Both the position numbers and the translations under genes were made by a program. Positions 26,883 to 31,482 of a stretch of 64,000 bases of DNA are shown here, one piece after another. Positions within the stretch are counted from its first letter, which is position 1, and every line of letters starts with the position of its first letter. The stretch is taken from UHGV virus genome UHGV-1351068; one strand, 5' to 3'. Below the pieces are notes generated by a model. That model did no database searches. It was not told the origin of the DNA and saw nothing but the letters and a program-made list of their open reading frames with translations. Origin of the DNA: a virus.

Positions 26883-26958
26883 TGGTGCCGGTTGACGGAA
26901 TCGAACCGCCGACCTTCTCATTACAAGTGAGTTGCTCTACCTACTGAGCTAAACCGGC
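26883..26958 (-). tRNA. tRNA-Thr (anticodon UGU), CCA encoded
   Basis: Reverse-complement GCCGGTTTAGCTCAGTAGGTAGAGCAACTCACTTGTAATGAGAAGGTCGGCGGTTCGATTCCGTCAACCGGCACCA folds as a cloverleaf; anticodon loop CTTGTAA. Confidence 0.85.
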
Positions 26959-27079
26959 ATATTTGGTGAAGAATTACCTACGTCACTAGGTTGGCTGTTC
27001 TGTCCACTTAAGGCTTGCAGCAGGAACACCATGGCTTTTCACCATTGATCCTCTCACGACTGAGACATTCTTCATAATT

Positions 27080-27164
27080 TGGTGCACCGAGAGGGATTCG
27101 AACCCTCAATCCCTGCGGCGTAGCATTTTAAGTGCTATGTGTATACCAGTTCCACCATCGATGC
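27080..27164 (-). tRNA. tRNA-Leu (anticodon UAA), type II
   Basis: GCATCGA...TAGCA-CTTAAAA-TGCTA; 13-nt variable arm; GAGGGTTCGAATCCCTC; TCGGTGC-A-CCA. Confidence 0.85.
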
Positions 27165-27168
27165 GAAA

Positions 27169-27245
27169 TGGTCGAGGCAGAAGGATTCGAACCTTCGACC
27201 TGCGGATTAGAAGTCCGCTGCTCTATCCAGCTGAGCTATGCCCCG
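27169..27245 (-). tRNA. tRNA-Arg (anticodon UCU)
   Basis: CGGGGCATAGCTCAGCTGGATAGAGCA-GCGGA-CTTCTAA-TCCGC-AGGTC-GAAGGTTCGAATCCTTC-TGCCTCG-A-CCA. Confidence 0.85.
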
Positions 27246-27249
27246 AGAG

Positions 27250-27376
27250 TGTTCAGGCAGGACTCGAACCTGCACGACTGATTCCGTCGGCGATTTACCA
27301 CCGTCGCCAGCATATGATGCAATATGCGAGCTCAAAAGGTGTCCGTCACCATGTCTACCGATTTCAACACTGAACA
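27250..27376 (-). ncRNA. about 126-nt tRNA-like/stable RNA candidate (T-arm plus 7-bp terminal pairing, no canonical cloverleaf)
   Basis: Ends tgttcag (27250-56) and ctgaaca (27370-76) are perfectly complementary; it contains GCAGGTTCGAGTCCTGC (a T-arm) and internal stem-loops (GGCGA/TCGCC, CGAC/GTCG). Confidence 0.35.
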
Positions 27377-27387
27377 AGATAATTATA

Positions 27388-27837
27388 TTACTGATTATTT
27401 ATAGCATTTCTTAAACGATAAAGTTGATTACAGAATTCGCGTTCAGTCAAAATCGTTTCAGAAATTTTATTTTTACCCATACTGTGAGTGAGTGTAGAAT
27501 TCCTGGTAGCAGCCAAAGCTCTTCTGAATCCTTCATTTTTACTAAGTGCATCGTATGCTCCTGTCAGTAAATTCTGATACGCTTCTGAAGCACGATGGAT
27601 TGGCACGCCTTTCCAATAAAGTGTTTGTGTTGGCCACCACCGTTTCTTTTTACCTTTGAACTTAGCCGATTTACCAACTAGTGTACATACATGTGCTTGC
27701 ATTTCAGGCGAAGAAAATTTGAGGGACTGCAAGAATCCCTCCATTGAGGCACATTCTACGCCATCATAGATAAATTTATGAGGAGCAAAGTTGCTCAAAG
27801 CACATGATGGATATGAACTACCTGAACCAATATCCAT
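27388..27837 (-). CDS. NADAR/YbiA-like (DUF1768) family protein (149 aa from the internal Met MDIGSGS)
   Basis: MDIGSGSSYPSCALSNFAPHKFIYDGVECASMEGFLQSLKF...WKGVPI: GSG...LSNF...F..DG..SxEHxxQ-type N-terminal signature of NADAR domains. Confidence 0.6.
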   Translation of the reverse strand: MDIGSGSSYPSCALSNFAPHKFIYDGVECASMEGFLQSLKFSSPEMQAHVCTLVGKSAKFKGKKKRWWPTQTLYWKGVPIHRASEAYQNLLTGAYDALSKNEGFRRALAATRNSTLTHSMGKNKISETILTEREFCNQLYRLRNAINNQ

Positions 27838-28394
27838 TACTTTTCCTTCACGTATTTCAACCAATCAACTTTTAACGGGCTTTCTTTTTGTTTATACGTA
27901 ATTCCAACATGGAATGCAACCGGGGCGTCAGGAATACGGATTTCTTCTTTAATGTCAAAGATTTCTACTTTCTCAAATACTCGCATGAAATCATAGTCAT
28001 ATTCAATTGGATTACCCAACCAAGCCTGAATAGCATACATAACTTCATTTGAACAAGAATAATGATCATCTAAATAAGCATCAAACTCTTCGTCTGAACA
28101 ATCATATGCAGGAACATCAACGCCAAAGAATTTCTTGGAAAATTCAGGAGTTACATACTTCTGTTCAGTATGAAGCTTTTCAAGAATTGCTTCATGGTTG
28201 TAATCATTATTTCCAAGGCATTCACAACGCCGACCACGAGAAGAGAACCATTCAAGAACGTGAATTACTTGATTAATCTCTTCTTTTTCTAAGCCATAAA
28301 CCATTTGGGTAGAATATCGGTCGGCATCATTTTCCCAAGTGGTAATTGCCATTGCTAAGCCTTTAGGAATAACTTGTCCAAATTTAACTTTCAT
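27837..28394 (-). CDS. hypothetical acidic protein (185 aa)
   Basis: ORF in the track. Confidence 0.55.
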   Translation of the reverse strand: MKVKFGQVIPKGLAMAITTWENDADRYSTQMVYGLEKEEINQVIHVLEWFSSRGRRCECLGNNDYNHEAILEKLHTEQKYVTPEFSKKFFGVDVPAYDCSDEEFDAYLDDHYSCSNEVMYAIQAWLGNPIEYDYDFMRVFEKVEIFDIKEEIRIPDAPVAFHVGITYKQKESPLKVDWLKYVKEK

Positions 28395-28590
28395 TATACA
28401 TTCCTCATATCTATTCGTTCTAAGGTATATTCTTTAAGAACAATCTGTTGACCACTTTTCAACAAGAATAATTGAATAGGATTTAATCCAAACCCGTGTT
28501 CTAAATCATGGTCAGTTAAATTTCTGTCGCAATAATTGAAATACATGTCAATTCTAACGAGAATGGTTTTCATAACTCCTCACACGAATT

Positions 28591-28667
28591 TGGTGACCCT
28601 GGCAAAGACTCGAACATGCAACCAATCCCTTATGAGGGGAACGCTCTACCAATTGAGCTACAGGGCC
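28591..28667 (-). tRNA. tRNA with anticodon CAU (Met or Ile2-like), solitary, with an imperfect T-stem
   Basis: GGCCCTG-TA-GCTCAATTGGTAGAGC-G-TTCCC-CTCATAA-GGGAT...GCATGTTCGAGTCTTTGC-CAGGGTC-A-CCA. Acceptor, D and anticodon arms are good; the T-stem has mismatches. Confidence 0.55.
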
Positions 28668-28744
28668 TTTATAGAAATCTTATGACTTTTATAAAAGCCC
28701 TCCGAAGAGGGCGCCTTGTCGGGCTATCCACCTGCTAGGCAGAA

Positions 28745-28969
28745 TTACTCACACATAAAATCAGCTACTTCCCAGAAGTCATTTTCAACTGCTACTTTAA
28801 CTACCGGAGAAATTTCAGATGTTTTAATAGAAACAATTACATCACCTGCGACAGTTTCTACCAGACCAACGATTTTCTCGCGGCGAGCAACAAATTTACT
28901 CACCGGATGGAATTTGCCGGTAGCAGCGAACATAGCTTCTTGGTCAACAATCAGTGCGATACGTTTCAT
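28745..28969 (-). CDS. hypothetical small protein (74 aa)
   Basis: ORF in the track. Confidence 0.45.
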   Translation of the reverse strand: MKRIALIVDQEAMFAATGKFHPVSKFVARREKIVGLVETVAGDVIVSIKTSEISPVVKVAVENDFWEVADFMCE

Positions 28970-29023
28970 TCTTTTTCCTTGTTTGTTTTGATGTAGTAAT
29001 AATAACAGGTTATTCTTGTAGCA

Positions 29024-29257
29024 TTAAATCTCGAAAATCGTTCCGTTTTCCCACATTGTTGCGAACATAGGAGAAACCTTAACGAATGATTTGCTTCGCA
29101 TTGCAACGTAGTCGTTATCTACTTTAGCCAATCCTGAAGCAATATCAGTAATACGGCCACACCTCATAGAACCACGACCACCTTTATTATATGTACGTTC
29201 TCCGTAGAAAACGATATCGCCAACTTGCACTTCTCGACCTTTAGAATCTTTCATCAT
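29024..29257 (-). CDS. hypothetical protein (track ORF trimmed to the internal Met)
   Basis: ORF in the track; start uncertain. Confidence 0.4.
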   Translation of the reverse strand: MMKDSKGREVQVGDIVFYGERTYNKGGRGSMRCGRITDIASGLAKVDNDYVAMRSKSFVKVSPMFATMWENGTIFEI

Positions 29258-29606
29258 ATTTTGCCTGCTGAATTCGTTTAAAATCGTTAACAAGTTCTTT
29301 TGGGTCTGACGCATTGTTAAATGGAAGAACTTGACGTAGTTTACTTATTTTACATCCGGTATGATAAGCAATAACTTCTTGAATATCACGTTCACTGAAG
29401 TACTCATATTTAATTAATGCTTCATATCTGCATTTAATCCAAACCCACATACCTTTGCGTTCATCAAAAGTGTATGCAAAATCAGCATGAAGCATTAAAT
29501 CACGTTCAGATTTACATAATCCTAAAGCAAAATTAGTTGGACGATTCCATTGTAATTTCACCGTAATAGCATTTACGCTATTTGCTACACCGATAAAGAT
29601 ATTCAT
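29241..29606 (-). CDS. hypothetical protein (121 aa)
   Basis: ORF in the track. Confidence 0.5.
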   Translation of the reverse strand: MNIFIGVANSVNAITVKLQWNRPTNFALGLCKSERDLMLHADFAYTFDERKGMWVWIKCRYEALIKYEYFSERDIQEVIAYHTGCKISKLRQVLPFNNASDPKELVNDFKRIQQAKYDERF

Positions 29607-29812
29607 TCTATTTCCTTCGCTTGATTTTGGTCTTCTTGTCGTGCACGAGAACGTCCTGCTTTATGCAGTGATTCGTAATATGCTCGACGTCTATCAATGT
29701 TTTCTGTACGATATGCTTTCCCGAAATGGGATGTTTTGAAGCCGTAGTATTTCATAATATAATTCTCAATGGCAAGTGATTGGACGGTATGCCCGGCCTC
29801 GAACCGAGTCAC
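29603..29812 (-). CDS. hypothetical small basic protein (69 aa)
   Basis: ORF in the track; its 5' end overlaps a tRNA-3'-half-like sequence (see findings). Confidence 0.4.
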   Translation of the reverse strand: MTRFEAGHTVQSLAIENYIMKYYGFKTSHFGKAYRTENIDRRRAYYESLHKAGRSRARQEDQNQAKEIE

Positions 29813-29930
29813 ACTGACTTTGCAGAATCCGTGTGTTTAATATATCACCCATACTCGATAGCATATCTGAACGAGACTGCAATCCCGCTACTCAGCTTAC
29901 ACCATCTTGTATTGTGTCATACCGATAATT

Positions 29931-30007
29931 TGGTCTCCATAGAATGACTCGAACATTCGACCTTTCCATCCCAAATGGAACGCTCTACCAGGCTGAGCTA
30001 TACGGAG
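29931..30007 (-). tRNA. tRNA-Pro (anticodon UGG)
   Basis: CTCCGTA-TA-GCTCAGCCTGGTAGAGC-G-TTCCA-TTTGGGA-TGGAA-AGGTC-GAATGTTCGAGTCATTC-TATGGAG-A-CCA. Confidence 0.85.
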
Positions 30008-30012
30008 TAATT

Positions 30013-30087
30013 TGGAGCATCCAGGGAGAATCGAACTCCCATCTTCTGGGTGGAAGCCAGACATAATATCCGCTATACGATGGATGC
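30013..30087 (-). tRNA. tRNA-Gly (anticodon UCC)
   Basis: GCATCCA...TCTGG-CTTCCAC-CCAGA...GGGAGTTCGATTCTCCC-TGGATGC-T-CCA. Confidence 0.85.
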
Positions 30088-30092
30088 AAATT

Positions 30093-30167
30093 TGGCAGGC
30101 CCTGAAGGAATCGAACCCTCATCACTGGGTTTGGAGCCCAGCATAATAGCCGTTATACTAAGAACCT
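30093..30167 (-). tRNA. tRNA-Trp (anticodon CCA)
   Basis: AGGTTCT...CTGGG-CTCCAAA-CCCAG...GAGGGTTCGATTCCTTC-AGGGCCT-G-CCA. The acceptor stem includes two G-U pairs. Confidence 0.7.
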
Positions 30168-30174
30168 GTTGTTT

Positions 30175-30250
30175 TGGTGCGAATACCTGGGCTCGAACCA
30201 GGGACCTACCGCTTATCGGGCGGTTGCTCTACCAACTGAGCTATATTCGC
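30175..30250 (-). tRNA. tRNA-Ile (anticodon GAU)
   Basis: GCGAATA-TA-GCTCAGTTGGTAGAGC-A-ACCGC-CCGATAA-GCGGT-AGGTC-CCTGGTTCGAGCCCAGG-TATTCGC-A-CCA. Confidence 0.85.
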
Positions 30251-30254
30251 GAAT

Positions 30255-30339
30255 TGGCGGAGAGTAAAGGAGTTGAACCCTCACCGTTTCCGATGGCCCG
30301 GATTTCAAGTCCGGTTTGCTACCACTAGCGCTACTCTCC
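30255..30339 (-). tRNA. tRNA-Ser (anticodon UGA), type II
   Basis: GGAGAGT...CCGGA-CTTGAAA-TCCGG, long variable arm, ...ACTCTCC-G-CCA. Confidence 0.85.
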
Positions 30340-30344
30340 AATGT

Positions 30345-30420
30345 TGGGGTGGCCGGCGGAATTCGAATCCGCGACATCGAGGATCACAACCTCGGGTTCT
30401 ACCAACTGAACTACGACCAC
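30345..30420 (-). tRNA. tRNA-His (anticodon GUG)
   Basis: GTGGTCG-TA-GTTCAGTTGGTAGAAC-C-CGAGG-TTGTGAT-CCTCG-ATGTC-GCGGATTCGAATTCCGC-CGGCCAC-C-CCA. Confidence 0.85.
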
Positions 30421-30515
30421 ATCAATATTCACTCCATCCATCATGAGGACTTCATACGGTAGCTAAAGCAGGTTCATGACTTCTGCCTACACATCGTGTT
30501 GAATGAATATTAATT

Positions 30516-30590
30516 TGGCTGAACCACCTGGACTCGAACCAGGGATCGTAGGATCAAAACCTACTGCCTTACCAACTTGGCTATGATTCA
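30516..30590 (-). tRNA. tRNA-Gln (anticodon UUG)
   Basis: TGAATCA-TA-GCC-AAGTTGGTAA-GGC-A-GTAGG-TTTTGAT-CCTAC-GATC-CCTGGTTCGAGTCCAGG-TGGTTCA-G-CCA. Confidence 0.8.
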
Positions 30591-30596
30591 ATTGTT

Positions 30597-30672
30597 TGGA
30601 GGCGGAGGCAGGATTCGAACCTGCGCGTGTCGGGATATGAGCCCAACATTCTACCAACTGAAGTTACCCCGC
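30597..30672 (-). tRNA. tRNA-Met-like (anticodon CAU); acceptor stem does not pair as read, so a possible pseudo- or chimeric tRNA
   Basis: D-arm, anticodon arm (TTGGG-CTCATAT-CCCGA) and T-arm (GCAGGTTCGAATCCTGC) are good, but 5' GCGGGGT cannot pair with 3' CTCCGCC. Confidence 0.45.
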
Positions 30673-30834
30673 ATTTATCCGGGTTCTTGAAGTACTAACA
30701 AGTAGCTTGATGTAGAACACGCTAAAGATATAATCTTACGAATATAGAGCTTATTCCGTGGGAACAAACAGCTTCGTCCTCGGCATTATCTTATAGGACT
30801 CAAACTCATCTTCAAGAACTGCCACGTTCTTATT

Positions 30835-30910
30835 TGGCGGACCTAACGGAATTCGAATCCGTGACTCTCGCGTGACAGGCGAGTATTTTAACCGCTGAAA
30901 CTATAGGTCC
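30835..30910 (-). tRNA. tRNA-Asp (anticodon GUC)
   Basis: GGACCTA-TA-GTTTCAGCGGTTAAAAT-A-CTCGC-CTGTCAC-GCGAG-AGTC-ACGGATTCGAATTCCGT-TAGGTCC-G-CCA. Confidence 0.85.
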
Positions 30911-31140
30911 ATAATTCGCTTTCAGAGATACTCTGGCACGATGCCGAAGCAAAGGGGAACAGGACTCTCATCACCTTGGTACCAGATGAATCTTGTTTAG
31001 CACTCTGTTCTAAGATGTATCCCTGAAAGCGAACTTTCAACGCCGTAAGAAATTATAAGCACGTAGTTATCGTTGAGGGAACTCGTACACAGGGAATTCT
31101 ATGCCGACGATTTATCAGAACGTCTTCTGACTTCTTCATT

Positions 31141-31225
31141 TGGCGGGCCGTGCAGGTATCGAACCTGCCTAGTCATTTCTGACACGGATTAACAGTCCGT
31201 CGCTTACCCTCTCAGCCAACGACCC
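31141..31225 (-). tRNA. type-II (long variable arm) tRNA with anticodon GUU (Asn?); unusual
   Basis: GGGTCGT-TG-GCT-GAGAGGGTA-AGC-G-ACGGA-CTGTTAA-TCCGT-GTCAGAAATGACTAG-GCAGGTTCGATACCTGC-ACGGCCC-G-CCA. The 15-nt variable arm forms a stem GTCA/TGAC; this is Tyr/Ser-like architecture but the anticodon is GUU. Confidence 0.6.
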
Positions 31226-31230
31226 GAATT

Positions 31231-31307
31231 TGGTGGGACACCGAAGACTCGAACTTCGGACACCCGGATTAAAAGTCCGGTGCTCTAACCAACTGAGCTA
31301 GTATCCC
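31231..31307 (-). tRNA. tRNA-Lys (anticodon UUU)
   Basis: GGGATAC-TA-GCTCAGTTGGTTAGAGC-A-CCGGA-CTTTTAA-TCCGG-GTGTC-CGAAGTTCGAGTCTTCG-GTGTCCC-A-CCA. Confidence 0.85.
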
Positions 31308-31313
31308 TAAATT

Positions 31314-31400
31314 TGGTGGGGAGTAATGGAGTCGAACCACTCGAGCCTTTTGAGCAACAGATTTACAGTCTGTCCCGCTACCCCTACGGTCTAACTCCCC
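31314..31400 (-). tRNA. tRNA-Tyr (anticodon GUA), type II
   Basis: GGGGAGT...ACAGA-CTGTAAA-TCTGT, long variable arm, GTGGTTCGACTCCAT-TACTCCCC-A-CCA. Confidence 0.85.
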
Positions 31401-31412
31401 AATGGGTAATTT

Positions 31413-31420
31413 TATTTATA
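31413..31420 (-). promoter_or_regulatory. T4 late-promoter -10 box (TATAAATA on the minus strand) 13 nt upstream of the tRNA array
   Basis: Plus strand tatttata at 31413-31420. Confidence 0.45.
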
Positions 31421-31482
31421 CTGCCCTGAAATTAATAAGAGCAGTTGATAGATTAATAATAACAAAGAAAACCTAAAGCATA

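Follow-up and report, generated by a model that had tools for sequence, protein, structure and literature searches.

The gene at positions 31141-31225 of the window (the whole 64,000-nucleotide stretch of virus genome UHGV-1351068 that was analyzed) is probably best explained as a functional phage tRNA-Asn that has a class-II-like body with a long variable arm and is predicted to be charged by asparaginyl-tRNA synthetase (AsnRS). In textbooks, the bacterial class II tRNAs, which are those with a long variable arm, are only the tRNAs for Leu, Ser, Tyr, and Sec. The phage from which the window derives is T4-like, has a genome of ~167 kb, and infects a Klebsiella/Raoultella host; positions 30800-31450 of the window match Raoultella phage Ra_O-2, Klebsiella phage pzk-kv4, and others at 99.8% identity. 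The gene and the parts of its surroundings that are discussed below are as follows.

26883-31400, minus strand: cluster of 16 tRNA genes with a single Asn gene (ARAGORN)
31314-31400, minus strand: tRNA-Tyr(GUA), upstream neighbor (ARAGORN)
31231-31307, minus strand: tRNA-Lys(UUU), upstream neighbor located between the Tyr and Asn genes (ARAGORN)
31141-31225, minus strand: class-II-like tRNA-Asn(GUU) gene (ARAGORN, Rfam RF00005, minimum free energy fold, family covariation)
31184-31200, minus strand: anticodon stem-loop ACGGA-CUGUUAA-UCCGU (sequence)
31169-31183, minus strand: 15-nt variable region, consisting of the hairpin GUCA-GAAA-UGAC (31172-31183) and unpaired UAG (31169-31171) (fold)
31141-31144, minus strand: discriminator G73 (31144) and encoded CCA (31141-31143) (sequence)

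An earlier note on this DNA had described an 85-nt type II tRNA with an extra arm, and every structural detail of that description was confirmed by ARAGORN, Rfam, and the minimum free energy fold. ARAGORN called the gene, which is 85 nt long including the encoded CCA, as tRNA-Asn(gtt) on the minus strand, and Rfam assigned it to the tRNA family (RF00005) through a match that spans the full model (1-71), scoring 49.2 bits (gathering threshold, 29; E = 1.4e-8). The minimum free energy fold is a cloverleaf (-32.7 kcal/mol, z = -2.49) with a 7-bp acceptor stem (GGGUCGU/ACGGCCC), a 3-bp D stem (GCU/AGC) followed by a 13:22 mismatch of G13 opposite A22, and a 5-bp T stem (GCAGG/CCUGC). Both hallmarks of class II are present, namely, a variable region of >10 nt with its own stem-loop (here 15 nt with a 4-bp stem and a GAAA loop) and a 3-bp D stem combined with the 13:22 mismatch. 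A cloverleaf with a normal variable loop of 4-5 nt, for which refolding had been proposed as a check, is impossible given the 15 nt between the anticodon stem and the T stem. The anticodon is GUU, and not GUA, at window positions 31193-31191, and the discriminator G73 named in the earlier note was likewise read in the sequence.

Homologs of the gene are widespread among phages. When the 85-nt gene was compared by blastn, at sensitive settings, with 50,697 phage records, 621 of them matched, including 546 in which the match covers at least 80% of the gene. Thirteen representatives were fetched, and a tRNA-Asn(gtt) of 82-86 nt was called by ARAGORN in 12 of them, representing the following groups.

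Straboviridae: Karamvirus CC31, Moonvirus CF1, Winklervirus, Bragavirus, and Aeromonas Angelvirus PX29
Marfavirus
T5-like Demerecviridae: Tequintavirus, Epseptimavirus, and Novosibvirus
Phapecoctavirus (phAPEC8-like)

In an alignment of these 12 called representatives with the window gene (13 sequences), GUU and G73 are invariant (13/13), and the core of the anticodon arm, CGGACTGTTAATCCG, is the same in 10 sequences, with the other three each differing by one substitution or one compensated pair. The cloverleaf cells of the alignment are paired in 99.3% of cases, versus 30-51% in controls slid by 1-3 columns, and compensatory changes on both sides were observed for 15 of the 24 base pairs. 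The extra arm is fully paired (100% of cells) and compensated at all four of its pairs, with the variants GUCA/UGAC, GUCG/CGAC, AUCC/GGAU, GUUC/GAAC, and GAG/CUC; in the D stem, covariation is seen at pair 12-23, and pairs 10-25 and 11-24 do not vary. Covariation over all helices indicates that the whole molecule, extra arm included, is maintained by selection, and a decaying duplicate is thereby ruled out, with the caveat that upkeep of a helix does not prove a special function. The gene itself is not new, as GenBank records already label it tRNA-Asn.

The alignment also showed covariation at the Levitt pair 15:48 (alignment columns 15 and 58), which is G15-C48 in five sequences and A15-U48 in three. 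Purine-purine combinations occupy this position in the window's subgroup (G15/G48, four sequences) and in Salmonella phage 1-23 (A15/A48). Purines on both sides of the 15:48 pair are unusual, a known example elsewhere being E. coli tRNA-Cys. In Citrobacter phage Ursula (PQ589834; locus L010, 574-660), the region corresponding to window 31141-31307 contains the 5′ half of tRNA-Lys(UUU) fused to the 3′ half of the long-arm tRNA-Asn, the fusion point lying within the near-identical anticodon arms of the two genes. This fusion is a deletion between the adjacent Lys and Asn genes, and the resulting chimera, whose acceptor stem cannot pair, is not called by ARAGORN and is labeled tRNA-Lys in GenBank.

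The evidence for Asn identity comes from the identity elements, the anticodon arm, and the place of the gene in phage tRNA sets. E. coli AsnRS recognizes its tRNA by G34, U35, U36, and G73, an identity set that confers Asn identity on tRNA-Lys when transplanted into it (Giege and Eriani, PMC9976931); in addition, G73 is an antideterminant for TyrRS and LeuRS (PMC9976931). The complete set is present in the window gene and invariant in 13 of 13 homologs. Host tRNA-Asn(GUU) (E. coli asnT/U/V/W) has GUU, G73, and the AsnRS identity set in common with the long-arm family. It is, however, a class I tRNA of 76 nt with a 5-nt variable loop, a 4-bp D stem, and U1-A72, whereas the long-arm family has a variable region of 13-15 nt with a hairpin, a 3-bp D stem (G13/A22), and G1-C72. 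E. coli tRNA-Asn, which occurs at 100% identity in 5425 of 5426 complete E. coli genomes, is identical to the consensus of the long-arm family over the 18 nt of positions 26-43 (GGCGGACUGUUAAUCCGU); the window gene has A27 for G27. According to ARAGORN, the long-arm gene is the sole Asn tRNA among the 16 tRNAs of the window, and in the T5-like phage SP15 the long-arm type is the sole Asn tRNA among 23 tRNAs covering 19 amino acids.

The window has a G+C content of 39.7%, and Asn codons occur in its open reading frames at 56 per 1000 (AAU at 34.6 and AAC at 21.4 per 1000). This usage is well above that of enterobacteria, so added capacity for decoding Asn makes sense. Together, the identity set, the host-type anticodon arm, the sole Asn slot, and the Asn codon use suggest that the long-arm gene is most likely a working Asn tRNA that would be charged by AsnRS. 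The earlier note had listed a genuinely unusual Asn isoacceptor among its options, and it is this one that has held up, given also the purifying and compensatory selection seen across phage families. The recoding or mis-sense and nuclease-decoy options that it listed as well are not supported, nothing having been found here in favor of either.

A route from gene to codon can be proposed as follows. The Tyr, Lys, and Asn genes are separated by spacers of 6 nt and 5 nt, and the three may share one precursor transcript, with this spacing as the sole basis; the Asn gene would then be transcribed together with its Tyr and Lys neighbors in the minus-strand cluster. The precursor would be trimmed to the 85-nt tRNA, in which CCA is already encoded. 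From the identity rules, host AsnRS would be expected to charge this tRNA through G34, U35, U36, and G73, a prediction made because its anticodon arm is that of host tRNA-Asn. Host enzymes should place queuosine at position 34 and t6A at position 37, and the charged tRNA would read AAC and AAU, both frequent in the phage.

The main rival to charging by AsnRS is mis-sense charging by SerRS, an enzyme that recognizes the extra arm, G73, and the first pairs of the acceptor stem irrespective of the anticodon, such that the tRNA would carry Ser and AAY codons would be read partly as Ser. The window tRNA shares with tRNA-Ser the extra arm, G73, G1-C72, and G2-C71, all of which are part of the E. coli serine identity (PMC9976931), and the window's own tRNA-Ser(UGA) (parsed by hand) likewise has an arm of only 4 bp capped by a GAAA loop. 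However, G2-C71 is found in 11 of the 13 homologs and is replaced by A2-U71 in the phAPEC8 group. Moreover, the identity of tRNA-Ser is independent of the anticodon, whereas the anticodon arm is the most conserved part of long-arm Asn; a strictly conserved Asn identity set and a host anticodon arm would be superfluous for a tRNA charged with Ser. Mis-sense charging also fits poorly with a gene that supplies the sole Asn tRNA in near-complete phage tRNA sets, and no toxicity was reported when the SP15 copy was over-expressed in E. coli (PMC11555353).

The geometry of the extra arm bears on the same question. The comparison of variable regions covered distinct tRNAs of four kinds (long-arm Asn, 42; Tyr, 34; Ser, 67; Leu, 42) collected from phages, viral contigs, and tRNA arrays, and the counts given refer to hairpin-forming regions only.

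Long-arm Asn: arm mostly of 3-4 bp; 0-1 nt unpaired on the 5′ side; 3 nt unpaired on the 3′ side (25 of 40)
Tyr: arm mostly of 3 bp; mostly 1 nt unpaired on the 5′ side; 3 nt unpaired on the 3′ side (22 of 27)
Ser: arm mostly of 4-7 bp; mostly 1 nt unpaired on the 5′ side; 0-2 nt unpaired on the 3′ side (65 of 67)
Leu: arm mostly of 3-4 bp; 0-1 nt unpaired on the 5′ side; mostly 2 nt unpaired on the 3′ side

E. coli SerRS reads both the length and the orientation of the arm. With 4 bp and the 3′-unpaired UAG, the window arm has the Tyr-type geometry, and the long-arm Asn tRNAs do not display the Ser-type orientation (4-7 bp with 0-2 nt on the 3′ side): their junction, with 3 nt unpaired on the 3′ side, is that of Tyr, and most family members have 3 bp in the arm rather than the 4-7 of Ser. 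The Tyr-type geometry makes serine charging less likely, and mis-sense charging by SerRS is considered improbable. The extra hairpin is capped by a GNRA tetraloop in 24 of the 42 long-arm Asn tRNAs.

The same geometry bears on ancestry. Like long-arm Asn, the class II tRNA-Tyr(GUA) has a short arm (0-1 nt unpaired 5′ and 3 nt 3′), a 3-bp D stem, G34, and U35; it differs in having the TyrRS determinants A36 and A73, the combination characteristic of bacterial tRNA-Tyr, where long-arm Asn has U36 and G73. The earlier note had pointed to a tRNA-Tyr(GUA) close to the Asn gene, which is indeed located 89 nt off, at 31314-31400, and had raised the option of a Tyr-derived tRNA with a mutated anticodon. 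Recent local descent from the neighboring tRNA-Tyr or a further class-II gene of this phage, with the product retained as a decaying or neutral duplicate, would account for the class-II architecture and for the proximity of the Tyr gene, and only positions 36 and 73 divide Tyr from Asn identity. However, the body of the long-arm tRNA (without the anticodon arm) is 64% identical to the window's tRNA-Tyr, a value within the spread of the 25 best matches overall (61-67%), and the GUU gene, with its anticodon invariant in 13 of 13 homologs, occurs in four unrelated phage lineages with compensatory substitutions. In addition, isotype HMMs (nhmmer; 1112 distinct phage and mobile-element tRNAs) gave scores of 3-15 bits with no winner and no Tyr signal. 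A recent derivation of this kind is thus highly improbable.

Older ancestry is a separate matter. When the body was compared globally with 96 co-resident tRNAs, identities were 0.67 for Ser, 0.65 for Tyr, and 0.64 for Lys, with per-isotype means spanning 0.55-0.67 overall, and since neither body identities nor isotype HMMs single out one isotype, the parent tRNA could not be named by sequence. The best single case is phAPEC8, with 71% identity between the long-arm Asn tRNA and its neighbor tRNA-Tyr. Tyr derivation is not supported as a recent event, but the Tyr-type arm geometry leaves room for an older one, and an ancient class-II (Tyr-like) origin by A36U and A73G is plausible. The long-arm Asn tRNAs also resemble the allo-tRNAs, non-canonical tRNAs from metagenomes that combine a long variable arm with an unexpected anticodon (Mukai et al. 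2017, PMC5389517). In allo-tRNAs, however, the acceptor/T helices are of the 8/4 or 9/3 type and the identity is that of Ser or Ala (PMC5389517), and the window tRNA, with its 7-bp acceptor and 5-bp T stem (canonical 7/5) and Asn identity elements, is not a member of that group.

A possible role for the extra arm is suggested by the defense systems that target host tRNAs. The PARIS nuclease AriB cuts host E. coli tRNA-Asn(GUU), one of its secondary targets, between positions 40 and 41, and the T5 tRNAs for Lys, Thr, and Asn jointly neutralize PARIS (Belukhina et al. 2025, PMC12409363). Another nuclease, P2-OLD, cuts tRNAs with paired CNG motifs in the anticodon stem, including tRNA-Asn (PMC12445682). 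The window tRNA has the same anticodon as the host tRNA cut by AriB and P2-OLD, as expected of an anti-defense tRNA. The altered anticodon arm or cut site that would also be expected of one is absent: the arm is of the host type, and its stem still contains C40 and C41, which form the context of the AriB site, as well as the CNG motif of OLD (C28-G29-G30/C40-C41-G42). Because the host-type cut sites are retained, any protection would have to be steric. The extra helix is placed three nucleotides downstream of the AriB and OLD cut sites.

By analogy with such systems, escape from host tRNA-cutting defense nucleases is a plausible role for the arm. The preferred reading, which is speculative, is that the arm gives the tRNA a shape unlike that of host tRNA-Asn while leaving the anticodon arm untouched for AsnRS and the modification enzymes; the arm would not be needed for Asn identity, and nucleases that cut the 3′ strand of the anticodon stem, beside the arm, might bind a long-arm tRNA poorly. 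In its strong form, the proposal is that the arm is an anti-defense device, that phages and mobile arrays have repeatedly given class-I isoacceptors a GNRA-capped hairpin, and that AriB and P2-OLD cannot dock on the product, which is possible but doubtful. Asn would then be the commonest case here, with Cys, Trp, Thr, His, Gly, and others also occurring. A precedent for remodeling of the arm is the tRNA-Tyr of SP15/T5, which with an altered variable arm resists retron-Eco7 PtuAB (PMC11555353, PMC12673091); in fact, changes in the variable arm of SP15 tRNA-Tyr decide whether retron-Eco7 is defeated (PMC12673091). That tRNA, however, is of another isotype and already class II, and its effect is demonstrated, whereas the effect of the long-arm Asn is only proposed. 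The sole experiment found with a long-arm copy is one in which SP15 long-arm tRNA-Asn served as a negative control for PrrC (PMC11555353).

An alternative as simple as the steric idea is that A36U and A73G converted a class-II (Tyr-like) ancestor into this tRNA and that the arm is a harmless relic of it, in which case AsnRS would tolerate the arm and selection would merely keep the fold. A further rival dispenses with translation and holds that the gene is mainly a decoy, namely, a tRNA-shaped RNA that soaks up a host anticodon or variable-arm nuclease, for example one targeting tRNA-Asn or tRNA-Tyr. Such a function would suit the joining of a host-identical anticodon arm with a Tyr-like extra arm, given that PtuAB and Septu cut the variable arm of tRNA-Tyr, and competition by viral tRNAs was raised as a possibility by Belukhina et al. 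(PMC12409363). However, the targeted arm alone would suffice for a decoy, whereas the perfect acceptor stem, G73, the encoded CCA, and the canonical D and T loops are all present under compensatory selection, and the gene fills the sole Asn slot in tRNA sets. Little credence is therefore given to a function mainly as a decoy.

Other observations concern the tRNA cluster of the window. All three isoacceptors reported as targets of PARIS AriB are encoded there: Thr(UGU) at 26883-26958, Lys(UUU) at 31231-31307, and Asn(GUU) at 31141-31225. The window's tRNA-Lys has C41 where that of E. coli has A41; this is the 'Mut2' change of tRNA-Lys, which is reported to inhibit AriB cleavage (PMC12409363). 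In the 230-nt spacer between tRNA-Asn and tRNA-Asp, the segment 30913-31035 (minus strand) folds unusually well (-70.4 kcal/mol, z = -3.39), with a long closing helix (UUCGCUUUCAG/CUGAAAGCGAA) of which compensated variants are found in CC31 (UUAUCUUUCG/CGAAAGAUAA) and Ursula (UUUACUUUCG/CGAAAGUAAA). Rfam gave no significant match for this spacer element, which is probably a small stable RNA within the tRNA cluster, comparable to the species 1/2 RNAs of T4 and the stable RNAs of T5.

Published results on phage tRNA-Asn have to be assigned to the correct gene type. In T5 proper (NC_005859, 33952-34029; locus L160, 13953-14030), tRNA-Asn(GUU) is a class-I molecule of 78 nt whose anticodon stem contains mismatches, and the Cys-Asn-Asp slot of T5-like genomes holds one of two alternative genes, the class-I Asn in T5 versus the long-arm type in SP15, N7, beppo, 1-23, and Bas32. 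Both are phage-encoded and occupy the same slot, but the T5 tRNA is class I with stem mismatches, whereas the long-arm type combines the host stem with an added arm. The PARIS rescue data, for which the T5 tRNA-Asn was used, and the T5 GenBank note on amber-suppressor conversion were both set aside as evidence on the long-arm type, since the T5 gene is class I. The annotated tRNA-Asn of Bas34 (Escherichia phage SelmaRatti, MZ501103; locus L163, 15517-15600) is a broken chimera, in which the 5′ two-thirds of a long-arm tRNA-Asn passes, within the T loop, into a foreign 3′ end (TTCCTGCACCCGCTGCCA); its acceptor stem is broken, it is not called by ARAGORN, and as a broken chimera it is uninformative on the long-arm type. 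Bas34's own tRNA-Asn was reported to be insufficient against PARIS (Belukhina et al., PMC12409363), which the broken chimera may explain.

The long-arm design was also sought beyond phage records. A scan of IMG/VR viral contigs for the 15-mer CGGACTGTTAATCCG returned at least 110 Asn(gtt) tRNAs, and among the matches listed, long-arm Asn accounts for 13-15 of about 110 (about 12%). The 15 long-arm IMG/VR Asn tRNAs among the matches listed are 79-86 nt long and have the extra hairpin with quite different acceptor and T sequences; three of the long-arm contigs among these matches also carry a normal Asn tRNA. Cellular genomes were scanned (185,579 bacterial and archaeal species, one genome each) for the same anticodon arm followed by a long spacer, and only 26 loci were found. 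Where ARAGORN called a long Asn(gtt) in these genomes, it was mostly within dense tRNA arrays, such as those of Micromonospora and Verrucosispora (23-36 tRNAs within 8 kb) and of Flavobacteriales, Methyloprofundus, Agromyces, Saprospiraceae, Bacilli, and Bacteriovoracales assemblies (7-26 tRNAs within 8 kb). A search with the 85-nt gene against 5,426 complete E. coli genomes, prophages included, gave no match even at E = 10. The long-arm design belongs to accessory, mobile tRNA sets and is very rare in bacterial chromosomes.

Long variable regions were also observed for other class-I isotypes in viral contigs and tRNA arrays, with at least two cases each for Cys, Trp, Thr, His, Pro, and Phe (IMG/VR loci L014-L133; L135, L142) and at least one each for Gly, Glu, Gln, and Met. 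Several of these non-Asn tRNAs show GNRA-capped 3-bp hairpins. The arrays contain Lys(UUU) tRNAs of 88-90 nt and a Glu tRNA of 89 nt, and tRNA-Ile(UAU) of 91-99 nt makes up 9 of 38 among the matches listed, most with a common CCAGAUUAG motif.

No description of a long-arm tRNA-Asn or of its class-II architecture was found in the literature searched, with older subscription-journal papers on T5 and T-even tRNAs lying outside the search. The word 'variable' is absent from both the PARIS tRNA paper and the eLife paper on phage tRNA evasion, and a long-arm tRNA-Asn goes unmentioned in the reviews on tRNA identity and on non-canonical tRNAs.

The tRNA-Asn described here has a class-II shape, and hundreds of well-studied phage genomes, as well as mobile arrays, have conserved it through compensatory evolution. 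If AsnRS charges it, then a class IIb synthetase tolerates a long extra arm, which would be relevant to the rules of tRNA identity and to how orthogonal tRNAs are designed. Should the arm protect against tRNA-cutting immunity, phage anti-defense tRNAs as currently understood would gain a structural means of escape: namely, escape based on shape, distinct from the substitutions in the anticodon loop and stem described so far. Such protection would also help to explain why these phages carry an Asn tRNA of their own.
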